Shown: positions 1 through 20,720, counted from the first letter of the stretch. The stretch: DNA of 37,064 bases from a bacterium (GCA_022709505.1 JAKLIR010000001.1:1-37064); one strand, 5' to 3'. Numbers and translations: made by a program. The notes: a model not told the origin generated them from the letters alone.

Positions 1-1247
1 CCGCGCCCCTTGGACTCCAGCATCTCTGTAATATTTTTCTTTGCATCTTGCCAATCGACTCCGTTATAAGCGCCGGAATTGATGAGTGTGCCGTCGGTAA
101 TAAAAGCCTCGGCGAGAGCGCCGTCTTCATTCCGTTTAGCTTCCGCGTTGTAAATAACTTCTATGATCGGTATGTTGAACTTCACCGCGAACTCGAAGTC
201 GCGCTCGTCGTGCGCCGGCACAGCCATGATCGCCCCGGTCCCGTATCCCATCAGGACATAGTCCGAGATCCATATCGGCACTTTTTCGCCGTTCACCGGA
301 TTGATCGCGTATGCGCCCGTGAACACGCCCGTTTTTTCCTTTTTCACATTCGAGCGGTCGATGTCCGTCTGCTTGCCCGCCCAATCGATGTAGTCCCTTA
401 TTTCCTTTTCGCGCTCCGTGGCGCAGATTTCGAGCACCATCGGATGCTCCGGCGAAAACACCACGTACGTCGCCCCGAAAAGAGTGTCCGGCCGCGTCGT
501 GTAAACGGTGAAATCGCGCTCCGAACCATCCTTCGCGTTGATCGCCGTGAACACCACGTCCGCGCCTTCGCTTCTGCCAATCCAGTTCCGCTGCAGCATC
601 TTCACCGGCTCGGGCCAATCCAGCTTGTCGAGATCCCGCAGCAACCTGTCCGCGTACTCGGTTATCTTCAACATCCACTGACTCAGATTCCTCTTCGAAA
701 CCTCCGCGCCGCAACGCTCGCACGCCCCGTTGATCACTTCCTCGTTCGCAAGCCCCGTTTTGCAGGACGGACACCAGTTGATCGGCATCTCCTTCTTGTA
801 AGCGAGCCCTTCCTTGAACATCTTGACGAAAATCCACTGAGTCCAGTGGTAGTATTCGGGATCGGTCGTGCTGAACTCGCGGTTCCAGTTGTACATAGCG
901 CCGATCTCTTTCAACTGCCGGCGGATGTTGTCAATATTCTTCTGAGTATTCACGCGGGGGTGAATTTTCTTCTTTATCGCGTCGTTCTCCGCGGGCAGGC
1001 CGAACGCGTCCCAGCCCATCGGATGCAGAACGTTGAACCCCCGCAGCGTTTTATATCGAGTGCAAACGTCGGACAACACGTACCCGCGCCAGTGCCCCAC
1101 ATGCAGCCCGCTGCCGGAAGGGTAGGGGAACATGTCGAGACAATAGTACTTCGGCTTATCGCTGTCGTCGTCGCATGTGTGCAGGCCGGATTCCTCCCAG
1201 ACCTGTCTCCATTTAGCCTCAAAATTTTCAAAGTCGTAGTCTCTCAT
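1..1247 (-). CDS. leuS: leucyl-tRNA synthetase, N-terminal ~415 codons; the 3' end runs off the left edge of the window
   Basis: This ORF is absent from the ORF track because it stays open to the window edge. My translation of the reverse strand from the ATG at 1247-1245 gives MRDYDFENFEAKWRQVWEESGL...YCLDMFPYPSGSGLHVGHWRGY (class I HIGH-type motif). It also contains MGWDAFGLPAEN, INWCPSCKTGLANEEV, NWIGRSEG, TTRPDTLFGATYVV and AVPAHDERDFEFA, all typical LeuRS blocks. The Arg-rich + strand ORF 48..1325 is its antisense shadow. Confidence 0.95.
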   Translation of the reverse strand, partial: MRDYDFENFEAKWRQVWEESGLHTCDDDSDKPKYYCLDMFPYPSGSGLHVGHWRGYVLSDVCTRYKTLRGFNVLHPMGWDAFGLPAENDAIKKKIHPRVNTQKNIDNIRRQLKEIGAMYNWNREFSTTDPEYYHWTQWIFVKMFKEGLAYKKEMPINWCPSCKTGLANEEVINGACERCGAEVSKRNLSQWMLKITEYADRLLRDLDKLDWPEPVKMLQRNWIGRSEGADVVFTAINAKDGSERDFTVYTTRPDTLFGATYVVFSPEHPMVLEICATEREKEIRDYIDWAGKQTDIDRSNVKKEKTGVFTGAYAINPVNGEKVPIWISDYVLMGYGTGAIMAVPAHDERDFEFAVKFNIPIIEVIYNAEAKRNEDGALAEAFITDGTLINSGAYNGVDWQDAKKNITEMLESKGR

Positions 1248-1432
1248 GGTTGCCTTATTCATATCCTTATAAATTTAATAACCTTCAGCGCGTGCAAGCC
1301 GCGCGTGTCAGGATGTCTAATTTAGCACATGGCAGCCCTCATTTCAAATATAAACACCATGCGAAAACCGGAAACCGCGCTGAAAAAAAGGAACAAATGA
1401 GAAAAACACGCTCGTGAGCTTGTCGAAGTTTA

Positions 1433-1460: not shown

Positions 1461-1526
1461 CTTTTCTTGAACCCGGAAACCCGGCGCATCAGCCTCGCGG
1501 CCGGCCCGGAACCGGGGAACGCAATC

Positions 1527-1612
1527 GCCGAAGTGGCGGAACTGGTAGACGCAGCAGACTCAAAATCTGCCGAGGATCACTCCTCGTGGGGGTTCGATTC
1601 CCTTCTTCGGCA
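1527..1612 (+). tRNA. tRNA-Leu, anticodon CAA (type II, long variable arm)
   Basis: I folded the cloverleaf by hand. The acceptor stem GCCGAAG pairs with CTTCGGC and is followed by discriminator A. The D arm is GCGGAACTGGTAGACGC. The anticodon stem GCAGA/TCTGC carries the loop CTCAAAA, giving anticodon CAA. The long variable arm is CGAGGA-TCAC-TCCTCG. The T arm is GGGGG-TTCGATT-CCCTT. No CCA is encoded. Confidence 0.9.
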
Positions 1613-1615
1613 AGT

Positions 1616-1642
1616 AAAAGCCACTGATGAAGTGGCTTTTTT
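1616..1642 (+). terminator. rho-independent terminator, possibly bidirectional
   Basis: A perfect 10-bp stem pairs AAAAGCCACT (1616-1625) with AGTGGCTTTT (1631-1640) around the loop GATGA. The T run extends to 1642. An A run on the 5' side means it could also terminate the convergent minus-strand operon that ends at 1787. Confidence 0.75.
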
Positions 1643-1786
1643 GATGTTTTAATAAATTGAAATAAATTGTCGATATCAAAGGAAAACTAATTCGCTTCAA
1701 AACAACAGCTTCATGGAGATAGGCGAAGCAATGTCAAAGAGAAGTTCATAGTGCCGACCAACAACCGGGATGATATATAGAATATT

Positions 1787-3244
1787 TCAAACGATCAATT
1801 GGTACACGTTTATCGTGTCAGATTTGCCTTTCACCGATGCCTTGTGAACGCCGGAGAAATCCACTCTGTCCTTCACTTTCATGTATGTCGATTCCCCGAT
1901 CAGTATCGGGACGCTGTTCTTTTTAGAAAATGATTTAATACGGGATGCCGTGTTGACCGTGTCGCCTATGATCGTGTATTCCATACGTCTGATACTGCCG
2001 AGGTTTCCGGCGACGACTTCTCCCGAGTTTATCCCTATGGATATTTTGAATTCCTCTTTATTCTCGTCTCGCCATAGTGCGTTTTGATCGTTCATCTTTT
2101 TAAGAAAATCCACGGCGCAGTTGACGGCTCTCAGTTCGCTGTCGTCCATCGCAAGCGGAGCGCCCCAGAAAGCCATAACGTTGTCTCCGATGAACTTGTC
2201 CAGTGTTCCCTTTGTCTCATATATCGTATCAATGGCGATGCTGAAGTAACGGTTCAGCATGTCGAGCAGAAGCTCGGGCTCTGTTGTTTTAAGTATATCC
2301 TTGAAGTTCGTAATCTCGGTGAACATCACTGTTACGTTCTGGCGCTTTCCACCGAGGTTCAGCTTCGAGGAATCCTTCAAAATTTCTTCCGCCACTGTCC
2401 GAGAGACATAGGACGAAAACGTGTCTCGGATCTTTTCACGTTGCATCTCGTGCATTATCGTCTTATGACGTTTTTCCACGATTTCGAGGGCGTTCTCGAT
2501 GAATTTTATTATTGTTTCCAACAACTTGATGGTTTCGCTCCCCAAACGCTCGAGGCCGCTGTTCGCAAGAACTATGATACCCCGGTTCCGCCCGCCGAAC
2601 GCCAGCCTGAAAGCCAGAAGCTGGCTTACTGCTTCCATTTCCTCTGCCGGACCGTAGTACTCAAAACGTGTATCTTCGAGAACATTGTTGCTCAAAAGAT
2701 ATTTTCCGTCCTGTATTACTTTATAGAAGATGTGATCATCGGGCAGAGGTTCGTCTTCGGGATTCAATCTGCTTTTGAGCTGATCGTTTTCGTCGAGAAG
2801 GAATATCTCCACCGTTTCAGATTTGCCGAGTTCGCTGAATTGTTTTTCAAGCATCCGAAAGATCATGTCGGCTGTTGCGTTTTCAATGAGTCCGATCAAT
2901 ATTTCCCTGCATCGCTGCATCATCGCATATTCTTCGTTCCCTTTGCGGATGACGTGCCCCAGATGAACGCTCAAAACGGTGATCACGACCATCGCGACCA
3001 TGTAGTTTATTCCATAGACGGAATTCTCCGAAACCTGCATGGCGAGAAACGGGGCTTGAAAAACAATGAGCACGAAACCGATGAAAATCGAGCCGGTGCG
3101 CCTGAAATGAATTCCCGTATAAAGGATAGGGATGCCCATGAATAATCGCGTCCATTCGTATAGAGGCCATCTGTAGTAATGGGATGCTCCTATTAATGAG
3201 CAGGAGATAACTGAAGATATTATTATAATCAATATCTTTTTCAA
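1787..3244 (-). CDS. cassette 1 gene D: membrane-anchored (about 4 TM) GAF-like class III nucleotide cyclase, C2-like variant
   Basis: 485 aa. Four N-terminal hydrophobic helices occupy residues ~4-98. The central region ends in a GAF-like block (RGIIVLANSG...IENALE). The C-terminal cyclase homology domain reads VTVMFTEITNF...DKFIGDNVMAFWGAP...IGINSGEVVAGNLGS..MEYTIIGDTVNTASRI. Key residues are E310 (normally the first metal Asp), K350, D354, T424, N431 and R435. The start codon overlaps the stop of the upstream gene in ATGA (3241-3244). Confidence 0.9.
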   Translation of the reverse strand: MKKILIIIISSVISCSLIGASHYYRWPLYEWTRLFMGIPILYTGIHFRRTGSIFIGFVLIVFQAPFLAMQVSENSVYGINYMVAMVVITVLSVHLGHVIRKGNEEYAMMQRCREILIGLIENATADMIFRMLEKQFSELGKSETVEIFLLDENDQLKSRLNPEDEPLPDDHIFYKVIQDGKYLLSNNVLEDTRFEYYGPAEEMEAVSQLLAFRLAFGGRNRGIIVLANSGLERLGSETIKLLETIIKFIENALEIVEKRHKTIMHEMQREKIRDTFSSYVSRTVAEEILKDSSKLNLGGKRQNVTVMFTEITNFKDILKTTEPELLLDMLNRYFSIAIDTIYETKGTLDKFIGDNVMAFWGAPLAMDDSELRAVNCAVDFLKKMNDQNALWRDENKEEFKISIGINSGEVVAGNLGSIRRMEYTIIGDTVNTASRIKSFSKKNSVPILIGESTYMKVKDRVDFSGVHKASVKGKSDTINVYQLIV

Positions 3245-4152
3245 GTGATTCCCACTCCCTGAAGGATGGCCTGAAGTACGGAAAGTATTACTGCGGACAC
3301 GAGGGCGTTTCTGAATCTGGCGAACGTCAGGCTTGCGAGCAGAATTGAAATAAGTGAATACGTGATGAAGCCGCCCAACGCTTGAAAAAAGTTAACTTTG
3401 CCTATGAAATAGAAAAAGACGAACTGAGGCAGCGAGATAATTGATATTAGCGATAGCAGAATGAAAATATTGCCGAGTAGTCCGGGTCCCTTCGCCTGAA
3501 GGTTTTTCCATACGGTGAAAATAAAGATATATATCACGAGACTCATTGGGAATGTCGTGGAAATTTCAGAGGCGAATCTCCATATGTGAAATTCGAACTT
3601 CAGCCCGTAAGCGTTCATTCCGATTATTGTGTACACCGCTATTAGCGCCGAAGGAACGATCGCCACGAGAGCGTCTGTAATCAATTTGCTTTTTCTTACT
3701 CCAAGTTTCTCCATAACTTCGGGTTCCGTCCATGTCCAATAGAAAATCTGCCATGTGGCCAGCAACCAGTATGGGGTTTCAAGGGTATGGTTTCCATAAG
3801 TGACTATCAGATACGTTTCAAATATCACAACGGAAACAAATAGCAGGATAAGCTTTCGTGAGTCAAAATGGCCCGTGATATAAAACGCGCCCGGCAGAAG
3901 GATCAGAAAATATACGGAGTCGATAAGAATTCTCGCGCGGAACGAACCGAAATAATCCGTAACATTTAAGTATTGCAGCGTCGTGCATAAAATACCGCAG
4001 CAGAAGACGAACAAAAGGCTTTTTCGGAAAACGGGCTCGGACGTCAGTCTGACGCGAATCCGGCCCGCCGCAAGTTTTTCCACAAGATCGAGGCGTGAAA
4101 ACCATTCGCCGTCGGGAACAATATTTTTCGTCTGTTCATTCATAGCCTTCAC
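3241..4152 (-). CDS. cassette 1 gene C: polytopic integral membrane protein of unknown function
   Basis: 303 aa with about 8 hydrophobic helices. It is colinear with the paralog at 9079..9984. Shared motifs are YW[TM]W[TS][ED]P..M..[LM]G, YG[LF]KF, FPM, VW[KN][NR]L and F.[RK]FR.AL. It has ATGA overlaps at both ends. I recognise no catalytic motif. Confidence 0.8.
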   Translation of the reverse strand: MKAMNEQTKNIVPDGEWFSRLDLVEKLAAGRIRVRLTSEPVFRKSLLFVFCCGILCTTLQYLNVTDYFGSFRARILIDSVYFLILLPGAFYITGHFDSRKLILLFVSVVIFETYLIVTYGNHTLETPYWLLATWQIFYWTWTEPEVMEKLGVRKSKLITDALVAIVPSALIAVYTIIGMNAYGLKFEFHIWRFASEISTTFPMSLVIYIFIFTVWKNLQAKGPGLLGNIFILLSLISIISLPQFVFFYFIGKVNFFQALGGFITYSLISILLASLTFARFRNALVSAVILSVLQAILQGVGIT

Positions 4153-5000
4153 TTCAGAATCGGCATGGATTTAAGAAACAAATAATAAGCAAGATATGAA
4201 AACAGCACCATTCTTGTTGAACGGCAGAAGAAAAACGCCATTCCCGTCGGGAGTTGGGTGACTACGGCGACAGAGAAAATGCTTAACAGACCCATCAAAA
4301 TCTTTCCGGAACCAACGGCCGACGGGAACCACAAGACGAACATGAATAAGATGTTGATGACAATCAGAACCGAGGGTTCGTATCGCATACCCAGAAGACG
4401 TCTTGTCATGATACCGTAAGTGAATCCGAAAACGATGAAATAGTTAGCGATGCCGTTCATGAAAAAAATGAGATAGCCGCCCAAGGTAAGGGGTGTGAAC
4501 TTGAAGTGTCCTACTCTTGTCAGAAAATAATAAACTAAAGTAATGGTTAATGTTGAAAGGAGTATGGAGAAAAGGATTTCCATGGCGAAGTTTCTTTTTC
4601 CAGAGTAGCCCAAGCGAAAGAGAAAATCCCGCTCGTTGATCAGAAACATGTACAGGCAGAGCGCCGCCGGCATGAAGAAGAGCGCGAACCAAGCCGAGAG
4701 GCCGAGCAAAAGAGGGGCCTGTCCTGATGCGAAAAGTATGCAGAATCCGGCGAACCACGCCCAACTGCGTTTCGAGGCCCCGCCGAGCAGGAACAGACCC
4801 AATGGGTAAACGATTAGAATCGTTTTGATCATATTGCCGGTTTCTATCAGCACCGCATTGTGGAGTATATTCAGCAGAAAGGTGCAGAATGACATCGTGA
4901 CTATGATCAGCGCCGCTTTTCGAAACGAGTGGTCAGCAAACAAATTCATACGCTGCGAACCGGGATAGTAATCCGATGTGGTTCTGAAATAATATTTCAC
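4149..5000 (-). CDS. cassette 1 gene B: polytopic integral membrane protein of unknown function
   Basis: 283 aa with about 8-9 hydrophobic helices. It is colinear with the paralog at 10001..10855. Shared motifs are YF[RK]...[DN]YYPG.QR at the N-terminus, LGY[ST]G, RR[LF]L.MRYE, F.RSTR and YYLFL. It has ATGA overlaps at both ends. Confidence 0.8.
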   Translation of the reverse strand: MKYYFRTTSDYYPGSQRMNLFADHSFRKAALIIVTMSFCTFLLNILHNAVLIETGNMIKTILIVYPLGLFLLGGASKRSWAWFAGFCILFASGQAPLLLGLSAWFALFFMPAALCLYMFLINERDFLFRLGYSGKRNFAMEILFSILLSTLTITLVYYFLTRVGHFKFTPLTLGGYLIFFMNGIANYFIVFGFTYGIMTRRLLGMRYEPSVLIVINILFMFVLWFPSAVGSGKILMGLLSIFSVAVVTQLPTGMAFFFCRSTRMVLFSYLAYYLFLKSMPILK

Positions 5001-6502
5001 TTATCTAATCCCTTAAGCTCATAAAGTCCGCCGAGCGCGCCGTTCTCGCGGTCCGGGAGTTTCTCGAGCCGTATCATGGTTTTCGCGGTCTGCTCTGAAA
5101 GAATGATCTTCGTATTATATTCTTTAGTCAGTGATTCAATCTCCATGGCTTTTTCGACTTCCTCGCCGAGAATCGTGAACTCCCTCTTTCTTTCGTCTCC
5201 GATGTTGCCGATGAGCACATTACAAGTGTGAAGCCCGATCCCCGAGCGGAAAACGGGCCGTCCTTCTTCGATCCATTTTTCGCAGAGTTTTTCGAGTTTT
5301 TCGGACATGGCCGCCGCGGCGCGCGCCGCGTGTTCAGCGTGTTCGGCGTCGTGCGCCGGAGCCCCCCAATAGGCGACGATGCAGTCTCCTATAAACTTGT
5401 CCACGGTACCCTGATGTTCGAATATCACGTTTACTATTTCCGTAAAATATTCGTTGAGCTGCTCCAAAATCTGTTCCGGCGTCATTTTTTCCGAGATTCG
5501 CGTGAAATCACGGATGTCGGACACAAGAATAGTGACTTCCTGCCATCGTCCTTTCAGAAGGTCGGGGTTCTGAAGTATGTGCTCTGCCACGGATGAGGAG
5601 ACAAATCTTGAAAAAAGGTCCCGCATTTGCTCTTCGCGAAGTTTTTCGAATTCCTTGCTGCGCTCCTGCCTTATGTTGTGAATCACGGAGGCGGCTATCC
5701 CAGCCATCAGTTGCGAGACAGAGACATCATTGTCGGTGAACGACTCGCTCCTGTTACTCCCCGCGGCCGAGAGAGCGCCGTAAACAACGCCTCCGGATTC
5801 CACGGGCGTGATTATCATCGGTTTCGGAGGGATATCAGTGCCGGTCTTTTTCAACCTCGGGTCATCCGCCGCGCTATGAATGACAAGTGCGGACTTTTCC
5901 CTTGCGGACCATATCAGGGGATGATTCTCCGCAAGTTTCCATCCTGTTGTCACAGCACTGCGCCCGTTCGCGGCCGCGAATACGGGCCATTCGGCGGAGT
6001 CTCCGTCTGTCATCAGCAGCGTCGCCGCGATCTGAGCGTTGATCAGCGAAACAACCCCCTCCGCCAGCCGGAGCATCACGCCTTTCTCCTCCGTTTCGCC
6101 TGCGATGTTCATAACGATGTCGGAGATTGCAGATACGCTTTTCTGCGCCAGCCGACCGCGTCCGATTGTGTAGCCTATGAATATTCCAAAGAACAATATG
6201 AAAGCAATCATTACCGCGGCGCTGTAAAGACCGTATTCTTCACCAGCTATGGCCTTGTCCATCCGCAGCAAAGGCATGAACAGCAAGGCGCACAAGATTC
6301 CGCCTGTGATTCCGCCGGTCTGTCCGTAAGCTATCCCCAATTGATAAAGCGGTAAGAGTACCATGAAACGGTAGTATTGGTGAAACGGCAGATTATAAAG
6401 AGCTGTAACATATATAACAACGAAGCACACAACGATTTCCGTTAAAACAAATATCCAACGGCCACGGTCAGTGAGTTTGTTAAAGGATAATCTCTTGTTC
6501 AT
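4997..6502 (-). CDS. cassette 1 gene A: membrane-anchored GAF class III nucleotide cyclase homolog, C1-like variant
   Basis: 501 aa with N-terminal TM helices over residues ~15-115. The GAF-like block reads PMIITPVESGGVVYGAL...FTDNDVSVSQLMAGIAASVIHN. The cyclase domain reads VTILVSDIRDFT...VDKFIGDCIVAYWGAP...GIGLHTCNVLIGNIGD..EFTILGEEVEKAMEIES. Both metal Asp residues are present (D329, D373). The transition-state Asn and Arg positions are E450 and E454. Confidence 0.9.
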   Translation of the reverse strand: MNKRLSFNKLTDRGRWIFVLTEIVVCFVVIYVTALYNLPFHQYYRFMVLLPLYQLGIAYGQTGGITGGILCALLFMPLLRMDKAIAGEEYGLYSAAVMIAFILFFGIFIGYTIGRGRLAQKSVSAISDIVMNIAGETEEKGVMLRLAEGVVSLINAQIAATLLMTDGDSAEWPVFAAANGRSAVTTGWKLAENHPLIWSAREKSALVIHSAADDPRLKKTGTDIPPKPMIITPVESGGVVYGALSAAGSNRSESFTDNDVSVSQLMAGIAASVIHNIRQERSKEFEKLREEQMRDLFSRFVSSSVAEHILQNPDLLKGRWQEVTILVSDIRDFTRISEKMTPEQILEQLNEYFTEIVNVIFEHQGTVDKFIGDCIVAYWGAPAHDAEHAEHAARAAAAMSEKLEKLCEKWIEEGRPVFRSGIGLHTCNVLIGNIGDERKREFTILGEEVEKAMEIESLTKEYNTKIILSEQTAKTMIRLEKLPDRENGALGGLYELKGLDK

Positions 6503-6575
6503 CCCCTCGTCTCAAGAGTATCACCGGATGTTTATTGATTGTTTGTGGCACTATTAGACCATGAAATGAGAACAG

Positions 6576-6806
6576 ATGTCAACTTGGATTCGCCGTTTGA
6601 TTACATTTCGGACAATTTCGTATGGGGATAATGATAAAGCTATTGATTATTATCTTCGCTACCTTTGTATTAATGAAAATGAAAAAGAAAAAGACGAAAT
6701 CAACGGTCGTGTTAACGAGTTAGTTGAATCAAAAAAAGCCTGTATATCCGGCTTGACAACGAGCCCGATTTTGATAGAAGCTGTTGTATCAAGAGGCGGG
6801 ATATGA
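6576..6806 (+). CDS. possible small ORF (76 aa) of unknown function
   Basis: Its stop overlaps the downstream ATG in ATGA (6803-6806), and its amino-acid composition is not obviously random. The ribosome-binding site is weak and I see no recognisable motif. It may simply be the 5' leader of the downstream gene. Confidence 0.25.
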   Translation: MSTWIRRLITFRTISYGDNDKAIDYYLRYLCINENEKEKDEINGRVNELVESKKACISGLTTSPILIEAVVSRGGI

Positions 6807-7477
6807 CAAAGAGTAGGGCGATAATCGCAAGTTACGTGGGTGTGCTGGTCATAGCATGTCCGATCTTCATTGCGGGCGGCAGGTTGTTATATTGGCAGGC
6901 AATACTTTATTTGATTGTGGCGATGATAGGTACGACGATTAACCATCTACTTACACCCAAGGGTTCCGATTTGACAGTCGATAGAGCGACAAGAGCGCGT
7001 GAAGGCGTTAAGTGGGACAAAGCGTTGCTCGGCGTCATGTTTCTTCTGAGCATTATCACTTTTGTTGTGGCGGGGCTTGATTCGGGAAGATTCAAATGGT
7101 CCGGAGAATTTCCTGTGCCGGTGACGGCGGCGGGCGTGTTTTTGATGACGGCCGGCCAAATTCTGTTCGCATTGGCGAAACGCGTCAATTCTTTTTTCTC
7201 AAGCACTGTCAACATAGATGCGAAACGGGAGCATGTCGTTTGCGAGAAGGGGCCGTACGGATTTGTACGCCACCCCGGATATCTTGGAATGATAATTTCA
7301 CTCGTCGGATTTCCGCTGATATTGAATTCCTATTGGACCTTCATTTTCGTGGCGATGTCCGTCGGCGTTTTGGTGCTTCGGACATACTTGGAAGACGGCT
7401 TCCTCAAGGCGCGGCTTAATGGATATACGGATTATGCGCTGAAGACCAAGTGGCGTCTTATCCCATATATATTCTGA
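6803..7477 (+). CDS. isoprenylcysteine carboxyl methyltransferase (ICMT)/PEMT-family membrane methyltransferase
   Basis: 224 aa with about 5 TM helices. The C-terminal block VCEKGPYGFVRHPGYLGMIISLVGFPLIL...RTYLEDGFL carries the RHP.Y.G and E[DE] signature of the ICMT family. A GAGG-like ribosome-binding site precedes the ATG. Confidence 0.8.
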   Translation: MTKSRAIIASYVGVLVIACPIFIAGGRLLYWQAILYLIVAMIGTTINHLLTPKGSDLTVDRATRAREGVKWDKALLGVMFLLSIITFVVAGLDSGRFKWSGEFPVPVTAAGVFLMTAGQILFALAKRVNSFFSSTVNIDAKREHVVCEKGPYGFVRHPGYLGMIISLVGFPLILNSYWTFIFVAMSVGVLVLRTYLEDGFLKARLNGYTDYALKTKWRLIPYIF

Positions 7478-7624
7478 AAACCTTTCCGGACATTAATAAA
7501 TACCGTTAAGTCTAAGTTCATAATTAAGTTGCTGAAAAGAGCCGTCTGTAATAGCCGATGGGTGCGAAGCTGTGAGCGTAATAGGCAGGTTTTGTTGAGG
7601 TATGAATGAGAATACAGAGAGTTG

Positions 7625-9082
7625 TCAAAAAGATAGTTGATAAACGGTTATAGCTCCGGACTTTCCTTTTACGACTGCTTCGTGTTTTCGTTCGACTTTC
7701 ACGCTGTCTTTTACTCTTGCGAATGTCGGTTCCCCTATGAGAATGGGGATGCCCTTGGATGTGGAGAGAGTTTTTATGCGGGCCGCCGTGTTTACGGTGT
7801 CGCCGACGATCGTGTATTCCATGCGGCGGATGCTTCCGATGTTACCCGCGATAACCGCGCCGCTGTTGATCCCGATGCAGACGTTGAACGGTTGCATTCC
7901 GTCGCGTTCCCAGCGCGCATTGAGCATGTCGAGCTTACGATGAAGTTCTCGCGCGCAGGAGATGGCTTTTCGTTCGCTGTCGGGGTTTGCCAACGGCGCG
8001 CCCCAGAAAGCCATTATGTTGTCGCCTATGAATTTATCGAGAGTGCCGTCGTACTCGAAAATGGTGTCTATGGCGGTCGAGAAATATTCATTGAGCCTCG
8101 AAAGCAACTCTTCCGGAGGCAATGTCTTCAAGAGAGCGCTGAAGTTGGTGACCTCCGTGAACATGACGGTTACATCGCGGACTTCGCCTCCGAGGTCGAG
8201 TTTGTCCGGATTCTTGAGAATTTCCTCGGCAACCGTGTGAGACAGATAGGAAGAGAAGGTGTCTCGAATCCTGTTTCGCTGAATCTCATGCTGGATTCTG
8301 CCTCGAAGTTTTTCTCCGAGATCGAGAGCGTTTTCCACTGACTGTTTTATTGCGATGAGATATGGCAGTCTATCCTTTTCGAAGTAGTCGTCGGTGGAGT
8401 TTGCGATTGAGATGACACCTCGGGCGCGGTCGCCGTATTCGAGAGGGAAAACCGCAAGTCTGGAAACGCGTTCCTTTTGGTTCTCGGGGCCGTAGTAGGT
8501 CAAGCGTGAGTCCCGCGCCGTGTTCGTACTCGCCATGAACTCGCGCGTTTCGGCCACGGTATAGAAAATGTGCCCCTCCGGGAGCGGTTCGAGGTCTGGA
8601 TTCTTTCGAGGTCTGAGTTTTCCGTCTTCTCCGAACATGAAAGTCTCGACCTCATCCGATTTGCCTGCATCCGCGAAAAAGGCTTCAAGGGTCGAAAGAA
8701 GACTGTCTTCTTCAACGCTCCTGCGCATAGACTGTATCAGGTCGGTGGTTTGTTGCAGCGTAGCCGAGTTTTCCCTGCTTTTCCGAAGTATGTGCCCGAA
8801 CACCACGGAAAAGATGGACACTATTATCGCCACCAGCACAACTTCCACTCCGAACCCGAAGCCGCCGGCATATTGCATGGCGAACAGAGGCCCCTCCGCG
8901 AGCACGAGGATTATTGCGATGGATATGGCGCTTGTGCGGCGGTAGTTGACGCCCGCGTAAATGATGGGCGCCGCGATCAGCAGGCGCGTCCAGCCGACAA
9001 GATTCCAATTGTATTGATGAAATGCATATATAACCGCGAGCGAAGATATGCAAAGAAAAATGAGCGTAGCGATTTTCTTCAT
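7625..9082 (-). CDS. cassette 2 gene D: membrane-anchored GAF-like class III nucleotide cyclase, C2-like variant
   Basis: 485 aa, aligning without gaps to the 1787..3244 product. It has the same key residues: VTVMFTEVTNF (E310), DKFIGDNIMAFWGAP (K350, D354) and MEYTIVGDTVNTAARI (T424, N431, R435). It shares an ATGA overlap with the upstream gene at 9079-9082. Confidence 0.9.
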   Translation of the reverse strand: MKKIATLIFLCISSLAVIYAFHQYNWNLVGWTRLLIAAPIIYAGVNYRRTSAISIAIILVLAEGPLFAMQYAGGFGFGVEVVLVAIIVSIFSVVFGHILRKSRENSATLQQTTDLIQSMRRSVEEDSLLSTLEAFFADAGKSDEVETFMFGEDGKLRPRKNPDLEPLPEGHIFYTVAETREFMASTNTARDSRLTYYGPENQKERVSRLAVFPLEYGDRARGVISIANSTDDYFEKDRLPYLIAIKQSVENALDLGEKLRGRIQHEIQRNRIRDTFSSYLSHTVAEEILKNPDKLDLGGEVRDVTVMFTEVTNFSALLKTLPPEELLSRLNEYFSTAIDTIFEYDGTLDKFIGDNIMAFWGAPLANPDSERKAISCARELHRKLDMLNARWERDGMQPFNVCIGINSGAVIAGNIGSIRRMEYTIVGDTVNTAARIKTLSTSKGIPILIGEPTFARVKDSVKVERKHEAVVKGKSGAITVYQLSF

Positions 9083-9984
9083 ATAAGTCCGTAGATCAGA
9101 AGCAGATTGGACATCGCCGTGAACAGGCAGGCGGAAGGCAGAGCGCTCCTGAACTTTCTGAATGTGAGATGTGTGGTGAGGGCCATGATGCAGGTGATGG
9201 CCGCGAACCCTCCGAAAGACTGTGCCGGTGGTGTGGATGTCGCGATTCCCACGAGGAGGAAGACGGGCGCGTTCAACGCCGCCGACATTATTCCGAGAGC
9301 AAGAAGGATGCTGATGGGCGACAAACCCAGAGTTTTCAGCCTATTCCATACTATGTGAAAGAAACCGAAGATCGTGATGTACATGGGAAATACCTGCACT
9401 GTATTGAAAAAGACTCTCCAAGGCTCAAGCCTGAATTTGAACCCGTAGTTACTCACGCCCCATGCGAAGTAACCCGCGATTGTAACGGCGAGCAGCAGCC
9501 CCGTGAGCAAGTGAATGTGCATGTTTTTTTTAGCGAAGCCCATGTCTTTCATCATGCCGGGATCGGACCACATCCAGTAGATCGGAAGCCATAATCCCAG
9601 AACGATGATAAAGCCGGCGAGAACCGGCTTGTGGTAAAACACAGTGTTCCATGTTTGGAATAAGATTGTATTGCCGATCAGCATCAGAGAGTGCTTTTTG
9701 TCGAGTTTTCCCGCAATACGAAGCGCACTTCCGAACATGAGAACATAGTACACTCCGACGAGGACGTCCTTCTCTTCTACGCTAATGATTTTTCTTGAGT
9801 AGAGAATTGAGAGAATGCCTGTGATGATGCCTGCGACTGCTAAAACCGCGGATGCTTTTGTAATCAGATTTTGGCTGAAGATACCGTGGTTCGCCCATAC
9901 TTCACCGGAGGCTTCGAGCACGTGAATGGAAGATGCGGTGCGGGCCGCGCAGTGGATGTTTTCGTGATTTGCCGTCTCTTTCAT
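9079..9984 (-). CDS. cassette 2 gene C: polytopic integral membrane protein of unknown function
   Basis: 301 aa and a paralog of the 3241..4152 product, sharing the motifs listed there. A 16-nt spacer containing AGGA separates it from the upstream gene. Confidence 0.8.
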   Translation of the reverse strand: MKETANHENIHCAARTASSIHVLEASGEVWANHGIFSQNLITKASAVLAVAGIITGILSILYSRKIISVEEKDVLVGVYYVLMFGSALRIAGKLDKKHSLMLIGNTILFQTWNTVFYHKPVLAGFIIVLGLWLPIYWMWSDPGMMKDMGFAKKNMHIHLLTGLLLAVTIAGYFAWGVSNYGFKFRLEPWRVFFNTVQVFPMYITIFGFFHIVWNRLKTLGLSPISILLALGIMSAALNAPVFLLVGIATSTPPAQSFGGFAAITCIMALTTHLTFRKFRSALPSACLFTAMSNLLLIYGLI

Positions 9985-10000
9985 TTATTAGGACATCCTA

Positions 10001-10855
10001 TTAAAAGACTACGGTCTGAAGGAAAAGATAATAGATAACGTAGGCGGCAAGAAGGGGCCTTGTCGAACGGAAGAAATTGAAAGCCAGACCGAGTGAAGCT
10101 TGAGATGCGATGGCTTGAAGTACAGCGCCCGCTATCATGTAGTGGACCTTCATGTTGTGGCGGCCGATCAGCGATAGCATCCAATATACCGACATGATGG
10201 TTGTGTTAAGTGCGATAGGCGCCGTAACTTCATAACGCATGTCGAGAAAGCGCCGCATTAGCAGTCCCAGCAGTATGCCCCAGAATGGGAAGTAGTAAAG
10301 CGTGCATATAGATAAGTGCAAAAGATATTTTGTCACCGGAAGAACTTCAAAACCACTTTTTCTTATTAATACCTGACCAATCCATGTGTATGAGATAAGA
10401 ACGCCGGCTATCAAAATCGTGAAGACGATCTCGATAATGGGTTTTGAACTGCCTGTATAGCCGAGTTCGGCGAGCACATGCGGAGCGGTCCTGTTCGCCA
10501 TCGCGAGGCAGATCAGGGACACGGGAATGAGTGCAAGAAAGAAATACGAAGCGCCGAGGGTGACGGAAATGGTCGCGGCGGCGTAGAGAGCGGCGGCGGC
10601 GGCGTACCAGAGCCAACCTGAGGCGGGCATGCCCCCCGCGAGCGAAAATGAGGCGGGGATCATATATATAAGGAATAAAAGAATGAAGAATATATCTCTG
10701 TTAGGTCCGGGGGTGAATGAAACCGCTCCCACCACCTGCATCACTCCTAAAGGAATGAAAGTAATGAGGCATCGACGGAATAGCCTGTCTGACAGGATTC
10801 TGAATCTCTGTAAACCGGGGTAGTAGTTCTCATTCGATTTGAAATATATATTCAT
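10001..10855 (-). CDS. cassette 2 gene B: polytopic integral membrane protein of unknown function
   Basis: 284 aa and a paralog of the 4149..5000 product, sharing NYYPGLQR, LGYTG, RRFLDMRYE, FFRSTRP and YYLFL. It shares an ATGA overlap with the upstream gene at 10852-10855. Confidence 0.8.
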   Translation of the reverse strand: MNIYFKSNENYYPGLQRFRILSDRLFRRCLITFIPLGVMQVVGAVSFTPGPNRDIFFILLFLIYMIPASFSLAGGMPASGWLWYAAAAALYAAATISVTLGASYFFLALIPVSLICLAMANRTAPHVLAELGYTGSSKPIIEIVFTILIAGVLISYTWIGQVLIRKSGFEVLPVTKYLLHLSICTLYYFPFWGILLGLLMRRFLDMRYEVTAPIALNTTIMSVYWMLSLIGRHNMKVHYMIAGAVLQAIASQASLGLAFNFFRSTRPLLAAYVIYYLFLQTVVF

Positions 10856-12375
10856 GCATTCTCCGATATCGGCGTGAACAGCTTTCCGTATTCTTCGGGG
10901 GCGCCGGTAATGGAAGTCAGCCGGACGCCGGACGCGCGAGACGCGGTTTCGGACACTATTATCTTTGCGTCGAGATTTTTCGTCAGAGCCTCCAAGCTCA
11001 TTGCTTTTTCAACTTCCTCACCCATGATAGTGAACGCTTTCTTCCTTTCATCGCCGATGTTGCCCATGAGCACCCTGCATGTGTGGATTGCTATGCCTGT
11101 CGCATAGGCGGGCATTCCACGCTCGGCCCAAGAAACGTTGAGCGTTTCGAGCGCCCGGGCCATGGCGGCCGCAGCCTTTATCGCGTTCGCTGCATGCATG
11201 GGATCAGGCGCCGGCGCTCCCCAGTATGCAATGATGCAGTCGCCTATGAACTTGTCTATCGTTCCTTTGTTGTCAAAGACGACGTCCACCATAGCGGTGA
11301 AGTACTCGTTCAACTGCGTCACGAGCTCGTGAGCGGGGATTTTTTCGGACATGGCCGTGAAGCCCCTTATGTCCGACACGAGCAATGTTATCTCCTTCCA
11401 GTTCCCAGCGAGAAGGTCCGGATGTTCGAGGATGTAGTCCGCCACTGTGGAGGAAACGTATCGGGAGAACAATTCCCTCATTCGTTCCTCCCGCATTATT
11501 TCCTCCTGCCGGTTTTTTTCCTGCACCATATTGTGGATTGCGTCTCCGGATGTTTCCGCTATGGTTTTCGCGATCTCGAGGTCTTTTTCGGAAAAGTTTT
11601 CGCCGTTCTTTTTGTCGGTGAGGAGGATTGCGCCGTAAACGTCGTTCTCGTAAGAGACGGGTATGGACATGAATGATTTCAAATAATGCGCGGGAGCGTC
11701 GAGAGACAATCGGGAATCGTTTGCGGCGCTGTTTGTGGCGAGGGATGTGTTATTCCGGACGCTCCACAGCAGAACGTTATCTTGCGGAGGAGAGGAGTCG
11801 GGTATGTGTTTTTCATCGTCGTAAGGGCTTGTTATGCGCCAATCCGAGGAGCCATCCACACTGTGTCGCACGAGCGCCGCGCATCTCGTTGCCTCAGTGA
11901 GCGAGGCCGCCGCTTCGCATGAGCGAAGCATGACGGACCTTTCATCGGGCTCCGCGAATAACTCCATGAATATTCCGGATAGATCTTCGACATATCTGTG
12001 GGTTTTGCGCGCCTCGCCGACTGTGCCGCCAACTACCACGCCGAATAAAGTGTACAGAACAAGGAGTGCGATGGATGAATAACTGTCGAACTGAAACATT
12101 GCGTTCGGCGTCTGCACGGGAAGGATCGGCACGAAAAGAAAAAGGGACAGCAGGCTTAACATTATGCCGCCGCTATATCCGAACGCCGCGCCCGCCTGAT
12201 ACAGCGGGATCAGCAAGAAAAACCTAAGATGGTTGTGGTACGGCCACGCCATATAAAGAGAAACTATTATGATTATATAAATCAGTGCAAACTCGGCAAG
12301 AATAAAAGCCCATCTCGTTTTGTCAGAAATTCTTCGCTTTCCCTTTTTTGGGGTTTTCTTATTCACGCGCGTCAC
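10852..12375 (-). CDS. cassette 2 gene A: membrane-anchored GAF class III nucleotide cyclase homolog, C1-like variant
   Basis: 507 aa with a GTG start immediately after an in-frame stop. The GAF-like block reads SFMSIPVSYENDVYGAILLTDKKNGENFSEKDLEIAKTIAETSGDAIHN. The cyclase domain reads ITLLVSDIRGFT (D335), IDKFIGDCIIAYWGAP (K375, D379) and AFTIMGEEVEKAMSLEA. The Asn position is E456 and the Arg position is S460. Confidence 0.88.
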   Translation of the reverse strand: MTRVNKKTPKKGKRRISDKTRWAFILAEFALIYIIIIVSLYMAWPYHNHLRFFLLIPLYQAGAAFGYSGGIMLSLLSLFLFVPILPVQTPNAMFQFDSYSSIALLVLYTLFGVVVGGTVGEARKTHRYVEDLSGIFMELFAEPDERSVMLRSCEAAASLTEATRCAALVRHSVDGSSDWRITSPYDDEKHIPDSSPPQDNVLLWSVRNNTSLATNSAANDSRLSLDAPAHYLKSFMSIPVSYENDVYGAILLTDKKNGENFSEKDLEIAKTIAETSGDAIHNMVQEKNRQEEIMREERMRELFSRYVSSTVADYILEHPDLLAGNWKEITLLVSDIRGFTAMSEKIPAHELVTQLNEYFTAMVDVVFDNKGTIDKFIGDCIIAYWGAPAPDPMHAANAIKAAAAMARALETLNVSWAERGMPAYATGIAIHTCRVLMGNIGDERKKAFTIMGEEVEKAMSLEALTKNLDAKIIVSETASRASGVRLTSITGAPEEYGKLFTPISENA

Positions 12376-12538
12376 TTAGAAATTTTCTTTCCCGACAGAG
12401 TATCGCCGGTGTGATTCACTCGCATGACGTTGTTTCCGAGGATATCCCGGCCGGAAAATCTAATTTCATGATTAGACTTTCTCTTTTCCATTCTTGTATT
12501 AAAGGATAAATATATTTATTGATTCACTTCATCATATT

Positions 12539-12553
12539 GCGAATACCGTGCCG
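12539..12553 (-). promoter_or_regulatory. candidate sigma-54 (-24/-12) promoter upstream of cassette 2
   Basis: The reverse complement reads CGGCAC-GGTAT-TCGC, against the consensus TGGCAC-N5-TTGC. The GG and GC dinucleotides are correctly spaced. It is very similar to the strong site at 18960 (TGGCAC-GGAAT-TTGC). It lies about 165 nt upstream of the GTG start at 12375. Confidence 0.3.
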
Positions 12554-12966
12554 ATTTCAACTAAAATCCTATTGATAATTTGTTGTTATGTCAAAAAGCG
12601 AAATCAAATAGCGGTAATTCGCGTGGCTTCAAAACGATATTCCATGTTGTTCGGAAAGAACGATCGCTTTCGCATATCGTCAATAAATATGCGCTCATCT
12701 CTATGAGCTGTTTCATTCTGAAACGAAAATGTTTTGTATAAAGCTTGTCGTATATGCGTCTTGCGAACAAGAACAATATTTGATATTGTTTGTTGAATTC
12801 AATTACCGAAGAGATGAAATGCTTAAGCAATATCCATGTTGAGCAATTGCGCTCGGATGGAGCAGTTCGATGTGAAGAACTTCTATGTTCCGGATAATAA
12901 GCAACCGGAAGATAAGAGTAGGGCGTAGTCGACGTTTTTCACTGTGGATCGGGAGGTAAAACGAAA

Positions 12967-15744: not shown

Positions 15745-17448
15745 TTGGAGAAAAGAGTTAAAACGGCTGAGGAGCAAAGATTGACGGCAATGAATTTCGA
15801 GAAGATCCGGATTTCCCTCATAGCCGTTTTCTTTCTGGTGGCGATATTTCCACTTTCACTTCTTTCAAGAAAAATAGTCTTGCAAGGTGAGTATCTGATA
15901 AAGGAGAAGGCCTCTGCTCATTTGATAGATCTTGCGAAGGGAAATGTAAATGCCCTTGAAAGATTCATGAATGAGAGAATAAACGACATACAGGTCATGT
16001 CGAAGATGGTGTCCGCGCGTGGAAGCGACCGAGGATTCGTAATAAAGCAGTTGGAAAACATGAGGAAGCAGTATCGAATATATCCGGGTATCGTGCTATC
16101 TGACAGTGAAGGCCGTCCCCTGATAGGCACGAAAGGGTTGACGTCCGAAAGCATCTTGAGAGTTGAACGGTTTATCAAAAGAGGAGGCATCGTTTCAAGC
16201 GGCGTCGGCGACGTGGAAATGTTAAAGGTATCGGATGGAACAATCCCGGCCGTTATTATCTGTTCACGTCTCAAGGGGGCTGGCGGCGGTTACGATTATT
16301 TATGCGGGATCGTGGATTTCAGATATGTGAACAAAATACTTAAGGAGAGCGAAATCGGCGGTACGGGTGAAGTGTACATAGTTAACAAGGTCGGGTATTT
16401 TTTAACGGCGTCGCGCTTTGGAGCGAGGATCCTGAAAGACAAATATTCGCTTTTCTTAGATGAAAGAGAGCCGGCGCCGGCGTCGGAAGTGACTGATTAC
16501 AGAGGGCATAAAGTTCTTCACACGCAAAGAAAGGTTGGAGATTATCCTTGGTATGTAATTGCGGAACAGGACAAGAGCGAGACGCTTGCGCAGATCGTAA
16601 GATTACGGAAAGAGACCTTGTTTTATGTTTTTCTGATAACGGTAGTTGTATTTGCGATGTCATACATTGTATCGATGTTGATTGTAAATACCTTGAAGTC
16701 AAAATACAGATATGAGAAGGAGCTTGAATTTCAGGTTATTCAGAAAGACAAGCTGGCGGCTCTGGGATTACTTTCCGCGGGGCTTGCACACGAACTGAAC
16801 ACGCCTCTTGCGAACGCTTTGCTTTATGTGCAGATCGCGCGTGAAGAGTTAAAAGAAAACGAGCATGAGTCTTTGGATGACAGGCTGTTGACGATAGAAG
16901 ACGAAGTGAAACATGGCGGTGAAGTGGTGAAAAACCTTCTGGGGTTTTCCCACAGTGCTCAAGATGGTAAAAAGAGTGCGAATGTCAACGACGTCATATC
17001 GAAGTTATTGTCGATAGCAGGCCCGCATTGCGAATCCAAAGGTTTGTTGATGCACGTGGACTGCGAGGAAGGCATTCCGAATGTGGCGGCCGAAAAGAGC
17101 ACGTTGCAGGAAATAATCACGAACATAGTGGTCAACGCGATAGACACCATGCAGTGCGGCGGAGACATAAGGATATCGACAAGATATATTCCGTCGATAG
17201 GGAAGATAAGGATTGATGTGTCCGATACAGGGCCCGGAATACCCAAGGATGCAATTAGCAGGATATTCGACCCGTTTTACACAACAAAGAAACCCGGAGA
17301 AGGGACGGGACTCGGATTGTTCATGTGCTATCAGATGGTGCGTAAACTCGGTGGAGATATAAAGGTGGTAAGCAAAAGCGAAGGAACGGAAAAGACGGGA
17401 ACGACTTTCACCGTTGAATTGCCCGCCGAAACGGAGCGAAGCTTGTAA
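15745..17448 (+). CDS. sensor histidine kinase with a Cache-like periplasmic domain
   Basis: The protein has two TM helices flanking an extracytoplasmic region of about 250 aa. That region ends in YPWYVIAEQDKSE, which is Cache-like. The H-box is LAHELNTPL, the N-box is NIVVNAIDTM, G1 is DTGPGI and G2 is GTGLGL. The ORF-track start at 15745 is TTG. The in-frame ATG at 15790 (MNFEKIRISL...) is the more likely start. Confidence 0.9.
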   Translation: MEKRVKTAEEQRLTAMNFEKIRISLIAVFFLVAIFPLSLLSRKIVLQGEYLIKEKASAHLIDLAKGNVNALERFMNERINDIQVMSKMVSARGSDRGFVIKQLENMRKQYRIYPGIVLSDSEGRPLIGTKGLTSESILRVERFIKRGGIVSSGVGDVEMLKVSDGTIPAVIICSRLKGAGGGYDYLCGIVDFRYVNKILKESEIGGTGEVYIVNKVGYFLTASRFGARILKDKYSLFLDEREPAPASEVTDYRGHKVLHTQRKVGDYPWYVIAEQDKSETLAQIVRLRKETLFYVFLITVVVFAMSYIVSMLIVNTLKSKYRYEKELEFQVIQKDKLAALGLLSAGLAHELNTPLANALLYVQIAREELKENEHESLDDRLLTIEDEVKHGGEVVKNLLGFSHSAQDGKKSANVNDVISKLLSIAGPHCESKGLLMHVDCEEGIPNVAAEKSTLQEIITNIVVNAIDTMQCGGDIRISTRYIPSIGKIRIDVSDTGPGIPKDAISRIFDPFYTTKKPGEGTGLGLFMCYQMVRKLGGDIKVVSKSEGTEKTGTTFTVELPAETERSL

Positions 17449-17460
17449 AAAGGTGACTCG

Positions 17461-19559: not shown

Positions 19560-20720
19560 ATGATAATCGGTGTTCCAAAAGAGATCATGCCTCAGGAAAA
19601 CAGAATTGCGGTGCTTCCCGAAAATATCGCCAAGTATAAGGCCATGGGATTCAACGTGGTGGTTGAAACCAATGCCGGCGCCGGGGTCTATCAATTTGAC
19701 GAGGATTATGAAAAAGCGGGCGCTAAGATCGCGGAGGACGCTCGCGCCGTCTATGAAACAGCAGACATTATTCTGAAAGTGAAGGAGCCTATGCTCGATG
19801 ATAAAACCGGCGCCCATGAAATATACATGTTACGGAACAAGCAGTTCTTAGTGACGTTCCTGCATCCGGCGGCACCGTCGAACCACGGCATGATAAGGAA
19901 ACTAAGGGATAAAAATATAACCGCGTTCACCATGGACGGCATTCCGAGAATTTCGCGCGCGCAGAGGATGGACGCCCTAACCTCGATGAGCACTATAACC
20001 GGTTATAAAGCGGTGCTCATAGCCGCGAACCAGTTTTCAAGATTCATTCCGATGATAGGCGCTTCGATAGGGATGACGAAGCCCGCGAATATCCTTGTGA
20101 TCGGAACCGGCGTGGTGGGCTTGCAGGGCATAGCGACCGCAAAGAGAATGGGCGGTGCGGTGAAGGCGATCGACATAAGACCGGCCGCGAGGAAAGAGGC
20201 TGAATCGCTCGGCGTCAAGACGGTGGGGTTCGACATGCCTCCCGAAGTCGCCATGGGAGAAGGCGGATATGCAAAGGCTCTGTCATCCGAATGGCTCGAT
20301 AAGGAGCATGAGGCGATAAGACAGACCGTTGTGGAATCGGACATTGTGATTCTCAGCGCGCTCGTACCCGGCGAGGTGGCCCCCATACTGGTGACGGAAG
20401 ACATGGTTGAAAAAATGAAACCGGGGTCGGTCATTGTGGATGTCTCCATCGACCAAGGAGGCAACTGCGCCTTGACCGCGCCGGGAAGCATGACGACAGT
20501 ACACAACATCCACATCTGCGGAATCAAGAACATCCCGGGTTCAGTCCCCGTCCATTCCTCATGGATGTATGCGAACAATATGTTTTATTTCATCGAAAAT
20601 CTCTTCAAAGGCGGCCTTGGTGCATTTGACACGAGCGATGAGATTGTCTCTGGCACTCTTGTGACTCATGAGGGAAAAATATATCATCGCGGCGCTTTGA
20701 AAGCGATGGGAGTATCATAA
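19560..20720 (+). CDS. pntAA: NAD(P) transhydrogenase subunit alpha part 1 (dI, NAD(H)-binding domain)
   Basis: 386 aa. It begins MIIGVPKEIMPQENRIAVLPE, the AlaDH/PNT N-terminal block. The Rossmann motif is VIGTGVVGLQGIATAKRMGA. An AGGAG ribosome-binding site is present. Confidence 0.9.
   Translation: MIIGVPKEIMPQENRIAVLPENIAKYKAMGFNVVVETNAGAGVYQFDEDYEKAGAKIAEDARAVYETADIILKVKEPMLDDKTGAHEIYMLRNKQFLVTFLHPAAPSNHGMIRKLRDKNITAFTMDGIPRISRAQRMDALTSMSTITGYKAVLIAANQFSRFIPMIGASIGMTKPANILVIGTGVVGLQGIATAKRMGGAVKAIDIRPAARKEAESLGVKTVGFDMPPEVAMGEGGYAKALSSEWLDKEHEAIRQTVVESDIVILSALVPGEVAPILVTEDMVEKMKPGSVIVDVSIDQGGNCALTAPGSMTTVHNIHICGIKNIPGSVPVHSSWMYANNMFYFIENLFKGGLGAFDTSDEIVSGTLVTHEGKIYHRGALKAMGVS

Follow-up and report, generated by a model that had tools for sequence, protein, structure and literature searches.

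In class III cyclases the active site is formed across the dimer interface, where one subunit provides the metal ligands and the other the lysine, aspartate or threonine, asparagine and arginine. In the mammalian membrane adenylyl cyclases AC1–9 both halves lie in a single chain, TM1(6)-C1-TM2(6)-C2 (TM, transmembrane); C1 gives the metal-binding aspartates and C2 the lysine, the specificity residue, the asparagine and the arginine, with one active and one degenerate site. Soluble guanylyl cyclase (alpha/beta) and the chytrid heterodimeric rhodopsin-cyclases are likewise obligate heterodimers of paralogs, in which one site works and the other is degenerate; these are eukaryotic, make cyclic GMP, sense through H-NOX or rhodopsin modules and have no separate accessory membrane subunits. 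The architecture of the class III dimer has been described (PMC9433096, PMC9552081). The bacterial enzymes are described as homodimers, having all six catalytic residues in each chain and two equivalent sites (PMC9552081), and the origin of the eukaryotic pseudoheterodimer has been placed within the eukaryotes (Schultz 2022, PMC9552081). Here we analyze a stretch of 37,064 nucleotides of bacterial DNA (GCA_022709505.1, JAKLIR010000001.1:1-37064; hereafter the window) that contains two diverged copies of a four-gene cassette, A-B-C-D. In each copy two different class III cyclases, A and D, enclose two polytopic membrane proteins, B and C, and the catalytic residues are divided reciprocally between A and D.

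The catalytic residues are divided between A and D

Eight open reading frames (ORFs) on the minus strand make up the two A-B-C-D cassettes, with lengths of 501-283-303-485 amino acids (aa) in copy 1 and 507-284-301-485 aa in copy 2 (Table 1). Their positions and lengths match exactly those given in an initial annotation of this DNA, which had described A and D as TM-GAF-cyclase proteins. The cyclase domain is found in both, all four proteins matching the Pfam profile Guanylate_cyc (PF00211) above its cut-off of 21.9 bits (A1, 69 bits, E = 4.8e-19; D1, 96 bits, E = 2.7e-27; A2, 54 bits; D2, 81 bits). The GAF domain is found by Pfam in A, as GAF_2 (E = 8e-12 in A1 and 3e-11 in A2). In D1 Pfam gives no GAF domain, and in D2 there is a sub-threshold match to GAF_3 (19.7 bits, against 27). 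Alignment of the A and D family profiles with hhalign extends over 448 columns (E = 1.6e-57), from the N-terminal TM module through the GAF region and transducer helix to the cyclase domain. Thus A and D are full-length paralogs, and the alignment of D to the GAF region of A makes it probable that D carries this domain also. At the N-terminus A2 has a weak similarity to the KdpD-type DUF4118 (PF13493; E = 0.18, 12 bits against 28.4, profile positions 7–102 of 107), to which A1, D1 and D2 give no match, and the TM module is weakly similar to YqhR (24 bits, against 27).

The best matches of D in the PDB are homodimeric class III cyclases, including CyaB (3R5G) and Cya2 (2W01), with E values of 1e-28 to 8e-33. 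We scored the catalytic residues by alignment to these two proteins, of P. aeruginosa and Synechocystis respectively, in 10 A sequences (one of them partial) and six D sequences, drawn from eight cassette lineages. Both metal-binding aspartates, the lysine and the threonine are kept in all 10 A proteins, aside from a serine in place of the threonine at locus L004. The transition-state asparagine is absent from every one, replaced by glutamate, aspartate or arginine, and the position of the arginine is variable (Glu, Ser, Ala or Arg). All six D proteins have glutamate at the first metal position, with the lysine, aspartate, threonine, asparagine and arginine intact. In the window, A1 has the metal ligands D329 and D373, K369 and the threonine, with E450 and E454 at the positions of the asparagine and arginine, while the corresponding run in A2 is D, K, D and T followed by E and S. 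D1 has E310 at the first metal position together with K350, D354, T424, N431 and R435, and D2 likewise reads E, K, D, T, N, R. The full set of six residues is therefore present in neither chain, but only in A and D combined.

Because the losses are reciprocal and class III sites span the interface, a heterodimer of A and D would have one complete and one degenerate site. The pattern has been kept despite 41–63% divergence among the A proteins, a persistence that is difficult to account for if the two do not cooperate. The residue pattern of complementary halves, C1-like in A and C2-like in D, is found across the cassettes, and it predicts that the two form a heterodimer. The threonine that pairs with the substrate lysine in class IIIb is present in all D proteins and in A, again with serine at L004. 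We take the Lys/Thr pair to be the ATP-specifying class IIIb pattern in the classification of Linder and Schultz, so the likely product would be cyclic AMP (cAMP).

B and C form an undescribed family of membrane proteins

B and C are proteins of ~280–310 aa with some nine TM helices, and are always found between two cyclases. The initial annotation called each simply a membrane protein, and had left open that they might turn out to be members of a familiar housekeeping family. Their membrane character holds, and they belong to no described family. Neither matches Pfam (E ≤ 10), NCBIfam, PADLOC or PHROGs, the last giving a single chance match of 17 bits, and neither matches the sequences of the PDB at E ≤ 10, searched with single sequences or with profiles. 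The same is true of 27 members of the B family submitted individually to Pfam. They are not two unrelated proteins, however. The B and C profiles align over 254 columns in hhalign (probability 97.3%, E = 1.9e-11), and B and C are therefore paralogs of each other.

Each has a distinct signature. In B this comprises an N-terminal YYPGxQ(K/R), kEI, the invariant E141, YGxLxRRLL, N216, CRSTR and YYLF, and in C it comprises W..EPE.M..G.RK, VWN.L...G and LTF.RFRN. The confident AlphaFold2 model of B, made for B1 (predicted local distance difference test, pLDDT, 90.7; predicted template-modelling score, pTM, 0.85) contains nine long helices. From the helix boundaries and the positive-inside rule, B is predicted to cross the membrane nine times with its N-terminus inside. 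In that topology almost all of the conserved residues (R27, G73-G74, P124/G131, E141, the RR motif and R260-S261-R263) would lie on the cytoplasmic face, and the conserved polar residues N216 and Q249 in the middle of the membrane.

No solved structure resembles the B model in a Foldseek search of the PDB (best E = 0.6, TM-score ≤0.26), and the low-confidence model of C has no match among PDB folds. The BFVD folds give weak matches only (E ≥ 0.15, TM-score 0.38–0.46), of which one is named 'CAAX protease self-immunity'. We rejected membership of that CPBP/CAAX-protease family (Abi, PF02517). Its motifs EExxxR, FxxxH and HxxxN/D are absent, no histidine reaches ≥60% conservation in either protein, PF02517 is matched by none of the 27 members of the B family, and Rce1 does not appear among the PDB fold matches.

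The cassette recurs as a unit

Within each cassette the genes are tightly coupled. The initial annotation had assigned ATGA overlaps to all three junctions of copy 1. Each is indeed a 4-bp overlap, but the sequences are GTGA, GTGA and TTGA, with GTG, GTG and TTG as the start codons of B1, C1 and D1. In copy 2 the description was correct as it stood, with ATGA at the A2/B2 and C2/D2 junctions and a 16-nt spacer with AGGA between B2 and C2. The non-ATG starts of B1 and D1 are backed by N-terminal conservation across homologues. C1 has an alternative ATG 9 nt downstream of its GTG, and this is the start used in the NCBI annotation of a metagenome-assembled genome (MAG), giving 300 aa. The NCBI MAG gene calls begin D1 at codon 36 (450 aa), by which the conserved first TM helix would be lost; on homology, the TTG start is the better supported of the two.

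How general is this arrangement? Our census took in the window copies together with L001, L002, L004, L006, L008, L009, L010 and L013. Wherever a locus bears B and extends far enough for the comparison, the gene order, the protein sizes and the close spacing are alike, with intergenic distances of −4 to +29 nt, and the order recurs in at least eight independent cassette lineages. The cassette reads 501-281-294-485 aa in L006, 507-280-302-484 aa in L009, and 504-280-296-485 aa in L013 and L014, which are 113-kb contigs. L001 (MAG DeMMO6_30, GC 0.63) has the C-terminus of A followed by B, C and D; L002 and L004 have A and B, their contigs stopping within C, and L008 and L010 are partial cassettes in the same order. 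The GC content of the loci ranges from 0.49 to 0.63. A single cassette is visible in each of L006, L009 and L013.

The flanking genes are unrelated among the loci, and there is no conserved fifth gene. The cassette is flanked by thiamine, purine, MetK and NamZ genes in L013, by AbiEii and a phage tail protein in L006, by HAMP cyclases and PemK in L009, and by RpoN and chemotaxis genes in L004. The initial annotation had named a lack of conserved co-occurrence as the outcome that would overturn its interpretation. The census found the opposite, a recurring A-B-C-D order with tight junctions amid unrelated flanks. We found no description of the operon in the literature, in keeping with the initial annotation, which did not recognize the gene set as a described operon.

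The family is rare. When 1.84 billion cluster representatives were searched exhaustively with the B profile in HMMER, just 29 clusters came back, all of ~280 aa, and every B homologue examined lies inside a cassette; B was never seen elsewhere. Indexed homology searches gave one or two relatives apiece, which is a lower bound for the one made with the 27-sequence profile, capped at 8,000 candidates; a scan of a genome collection gave one cassette locus, and a metagenome scan gave one short locus. The nearest named MAG to the L013 genome is bacterium ADurb.Bin236 (unclassified Bacteria).

Beside the cassette of L009 (191–1174 and 4443–6793) there is at least one, and probably two, gene pairs encoding a Phosphonate-bd periplasmic binding protein and a HAMP-cyclase. 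One pair is complete within the locus, and in the other the cyclase gene is cut short by the locus boundary; the organism therefore possesses many cyclases. In the window a Phosphonate-bd ORF stands by itself at 29926–30687, without an adjoining cyclase.

The two cassettes are anciently diverged isoforms

The two copies in the window differ considerably, with global identities of 40% between A1 and A2, 29% between B1 and B2, 26% between C1 and C2, and 48% between D1 and D2. The annotation had noted by eye a colinear, gap-free alignment of the two D proteins with about half of their positions identical, and global alignment bears this out, with 233 of 485 positions identical and no gap. At the DNA level blastn finds only two stretches of similarity, of ~660 and 530 bp at 65–67% identity in the cyclase-coding parts; as had been stated, the DNA is not a repeat. 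This low and patchy identity indicates an old duplication, and neither a repeat nor an artefact of assembly.

Each copy is closer to the cassettes of other organisms than to its sister (27–48% identity in this comparison). Copy 2 is 63, 51 and 46% identical to L002 in A, B and C, and 52, 46 and 53% identical to L001 in B, C and D; thus B2 is 51–52% and C2 46% identical to the equivalent proteins of both loci. Copy 1 is 61–66% identical to two fragments (P0002 and P0004) of one JGI metagenome. It follows that the split predates the divergence from these other organisms, or that one copy has been transferred. Copy 2 groups with L001 and L002 whichever of the four genes is compared; the cassette thus evolves as one unit. 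The reading frames of both copies are intact, and both keep the full reciprocal pattern of residues. These data support the view that the two cassettes are anciently diverged isoforms, both of them maintained, and the kinship with cassettes of other organisms strengthens the earlier proposal of an old duplication in which neither copy has been lost.

The sequence of the region has been obtained independently. Window positions 1464–6070 are 100% identical in a separate NCBI MAG contig (L012, GCA_035389745.1, DAOOSK010000065.1) and 99.7% identical in an ENA assembly. The L012 contig, which carries cassette 1, is 4.6 kb in length and ends within A1.

A proposed four-subunit membrane cyclase

On balance we lean towards the reading that each cassette encodes one membrane-embedded adenylyl cyclase of four subunits, in which A and D are catalytic and B and C provide the signal input. 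A and D would form an obligate head-to-tail heterodimer, with A giving the two metal-binding aspartates and D the substrate-specifying lysine and threonine and the transition-state asparagine and arginine. In this way a single competent site converting ATP to cAMP would be created at the A/D interface. The second, pseudo-symmetric site (Glu and Asp of D with Lys and Thr of A, lacking the asparagine) would be catalytically degenerate, and may be a regulatory pocket. B and C would make a pseudo-symmetric membrane pair, docking on the membrane and juxtamembrane region of A/D through the conserved cytoplasmic face and acting as receptor or co-sensor. A signal could then pass to the GAF domains, on to the transducer helices, and finally to the catalytic dimer, and the two isoforms in the window presumably answer different cues. 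The initial annotation had suggested a complex of fixed stoichiometry; the residue complementarity of A and D lends strong, though indirect, support to such an assembly.

A number of considerations weigh against this proposal. We infer from sequence that A and D heterodimerize and that the four proteins assemble, and the assignment of B and C to input rather than output is an interpretation of the same kind. A keeps the arginine in three cases (L002, L008 and L010/L013), and the case for a degenerate second site is therefore carried chiefly by the absent asparagine and the glutamate of D. That glutamate might still bind metal, in which case D homodimers might retain some activity. No ligand-binding, transport or enzymatic motif is recognizable in B or C, and the AlphaFold2 model of C (made for C2), while similar to B in the layout of its helices, is of low confidence (pLDDT 64.5). 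Finally, the taxonomic breadth of the cassette rests on source genomes that are all labelled simply 'bacterium'.

B and C might instead be the output of the system, as a transporter or channel that is coupled to A/D or gated by it, through contact or through local cAMP. Fusions of cyclases with channels and with P-type ATPases are known in protists. Both proteins are polytopic, B has its polar residues N216 and Q249 in mid-membrane, and no gene for an effector that binds cyclic nucleotide monophosphates (cNMPs) stands beside the cassette in the window. Strict co-occurrence fits this explanation equally well. Yet neither B nor C has a cNMP-binding domain or a transporter signature, the fold of B does not correspond to any solved transporter or channel, and the conserved residues gather on the cytoplasmic face and do not follow a path across the membrane. 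We think an output role unlikely.

A second alternative dispenses with the heterodimer. A homodimer of D would be the sole working cyclase, using glutamate for aspartate, with A serving as a regulatory pseudo-cyclase or a nucleotide sensor and B and C as unrelated partners, in assembly or anchoring for example. Five of the six canonical residues are present in D, the sixth being conservatively replaced by glutamate, and A resembles inactive cyclase homologues in lacking the asparagine and often the arginine. What this fails to explain is the retention in A of both metal aspartates, the lysine and the threonine (Ser in L004) in every cassette, despite the divergence of the A proteins; no selection for these would be expected unless A contributes to a catalytic site. 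Moreover the losses in A and D are exactly reciprocal, and the two are always co-encoded. Taken together, this makes D alone an improbable source of the activity.

The pairing of a class III-type cyclase gene with genes for membrane proteins also recalls the Pycsar anti-phage systems, where PycC is accompanied by a TM or TIR effector. By analogy, infection would prompt A and D to synthesize a cyclic nucleotide, with B and C as membrane-disrupting effectors. Indeed A and D match the PycC models of PADLOC (best E = 4.8e-27), and there are mobile or defence genes near two of the loci, AbiEii with a phage tail protein in L006 and PemK in L009. But the PycC matches span only the generic class III cyclase domain, and housekeeping cyclases match equally well. 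Pycsar effectors carry a cNMP-binding domain; B and C are without one, and have no PADLOC match. The specificity residues Lys and Thr are of the purine (ATP) type. A and D are two complementary cyclases with TM and GAF sensor modules, and the context is mostly housekeeping, as in the window and L013 (thiamine, purine, MetK, PntAB and Kup). We have rejected the Pycsar reading, which we consider very improbable. Chance adjacency or an assembly artefact has a negligible claim, given at least eight independent lineages with unrelated flanks, the low and patchy DNA identity of the two copies, and the independent recovery of the region in the L012 contig and the ENA assembly.

Relationship to known systems

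A close parallel to the four-subunit cyclase proposed here is provided by mammalian AC1–9. The division of residues between A and D is that between C1 and C2, and both systems have a sizeable membrane portion, built in two parts and with a putative sensory role, and transducer helices before the catalytic domains. The differences are substantial. Four separate polypeptides replace a single chain, and the Lys/Thr pair is of class IIIb whereas the mammalian enzymes are of class IIIa. There is a GAF domain in each half (probable in D) that the mammalian enzymes do not have. D keeps the second metal aspartate, with glutamate at the first position. Most of the membrane mass is in the separate 9-TM proteins B and C, which have no detectable similarity to solved structures, including AC5, AC8 and M. 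tuberculosis Cya. The resemblance to the mammalian membrane cyclases is almost certainly convergent.

The homodimeric bacterial enzymes, CyaB of P. aeruginosa, Cya2 of Synechocystis and Rv1625c/Cya of M. tuberculosis, share the catalytic fold, and CyaB is in addition membrane-anchored and of the class IIIb Lys/Thr type. Their chains are complete, in contrast to the cassettes, where the residues are split between co-encoded paralogs and accompanied by two dedicated membrane proteins. Like soluble guanylyl cyclase and the chytrid rhodopsin-cyclases, the cassettes are predicted to form a heterodimer of paralogs. The logic that we propose for B and C is, purely by analogy, that of DcuS with DctA/DcuB, UhpB with UhpC and BceS with BceAB, in which a signalling enzyme that has only a small anchor in the membrane perceives its signal by way of a co-encoded, transporter-like polytopic co-sensor. 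In these the output is a kinase; here it would be a cyclase, and the accessory proteins have no known transport function or family.

A more far-reaching version of the proposal is that the cassette specifies a new signalling holoenzyme, with B·C as a 9-TM receptor of new fold and A·D as a split C1/C2-like output, arising independently of the eukaryotic membrane cyclases by convergence. We offer this tentatively, as possible rather than probable.

Flanking sequences and neighbouring genes

Upstream of cassette 1 there are sigma-70-like consensus matches at 6673–6646 and 6515–6487, with a presumed promoter function. No significant motif is common to the two upstream regions. An element CCGG[T/C]GATACTCT, identical at 12 of 13 positions, occupies the same place in both cassettes, ~12–34 nt before the A starts (6515–6527 and 12397–12409, minus strand), but is not significant (E = 0.5). 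Cassette 2 alone has a sigma-54-like element, CGGCAC-N5-TCGCA, at 12538–12553 on the minus strand, ~160 nt upstream of A2, with 9 of 11 consensus positions and the GG-N10-GC spacing. Positions 15745–18834 hold the genes of a dCache histidine kinase and of a response regulator dependent on sigma-54. The hairpin beyond the 3′ end of D1 may be a bidirectional terminator that closes cassette 1, functioning on the minus strand as well. Directly downstream of D1, on the opposite strand, is tRNA-Leu(CAA) (1527–1612, plus).

Table 1. Cassette genes and associated features of the window, in positions of the whole stretch
Feature	Position	Strand	Description
A1	4997..6502	-	501 aa; 3-4 TM helices, GAF and class III cyclase domain; C1-like
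B1	4149..5000	-	283 aa; ~9 TM; undescribed family; GTG start overlapping the A1 stop
C1	3241..4152	-	303 aa; ~9 TM; distant paralog of B; GTG start overlapping the B1 stop
D1	1787..3244	-	485 aa; TM, probable divergent GAF and class III cyclase domain; C2-like; TTG start overlapping the C1 stop
A2	10852..12375	-	507 aa; paralog of A1 with C1-like residue pattern
B2	10001..10855	-	284 aa; B family; ATGA overlap with A2
C2	9079..9984	-	301 aa; C family; 16-nt spacer with AGGA after B2
D2	7625..9082	-	485 aa; C2-like residue pattern; ATGA overlap with C2
Cassette-1 upstream non-coding region	6503..6802	-	Presumed promoter; shared divergently with an ICMT-family gene
Cassette-2 upstream non-coding region	12376..12966	-	Presumed promoter; sigma-70-like consensus matches
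Hairpin	1616..1640		G+C-rich; 10-pair stem with A-run and T-run flanks; between tRNA-Leu and the 3′ end of D1

Between the cassettes is a gene for a membrane methyltransferase of the ICMT/PEMT family (6803–7477, plus; 224 aa; PF04140, 9.8e-11). It was ruled out as a part of the cassette by its absence at L006, L009 and L013, and its presence here is probably incidental, although its position beside membrane proteins that are weakly CPBP-like is curious.

As the initial annotation had indicated, there is no cNMP-binding protein, phosphodiesterase or CRP-type regulator among the 20 window ORFs of ≥120 aa outside the cassettes that were scanned against Pfam. No cNMP_binding gene was seen near the cassettes of the window, L004, L006 or L009. 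In L013 a 174-aa cNMP_binding protein, a possible cAMP receptor, is encoded 6.6 kb downstream of the cassette (19859–20383, minus).

Three other regions of the window have unusual features. A 425-aa ORF at 48–1325 (plus), without a Pfam match, occupies a stretch where the GC content is raised (0.55) and the GC skew is strongly negative; it is overlapped by an antisense ORF of 233 aa (136–837, minus), and the ENA assembly (L011) calls a gene on the opposite strand there. PntB (21177–23168, plus) is unusually long at 663 aa, with a weak TPP_enzyme_M match in the C-terminal extension that follows its PNTB domain of 456 residues. A short protein of 220 aa at 27379–28041 (plus) resembles the flagellar cap protein FliD (PF07195, 3e-11) in the C-terminal part of the latter alone, and is not near any flagellar operon in the window.

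Significance

The family is confined to uncultured bacteria and is known here from sequence alone, which together with its rarity (29 clusters) limits its interest. What is new is a class III cyclase that appears to be split into a C1/C2-like pair, encoded together with two dedicated accessory membrane proteins of an undescribed family. The asymmetric cyclase with one site has so far been treated as a eukaryotic innovation achieved by gene fusion, and a conserved bacterial operon with its catalytic residues reciprocally split between two paralogs would be a counterpart of C1 and C2 that arose naturally and independently. If the four proteins do form one complex, each part could be removed or exchanged genetically, giving a handle on the role of the membrane domains of adenylyl cyclases. 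Two diverged isoforms lying side by side provide a built-in test of specificity, by cross-pairing A1 with D2 or B1 with C2.

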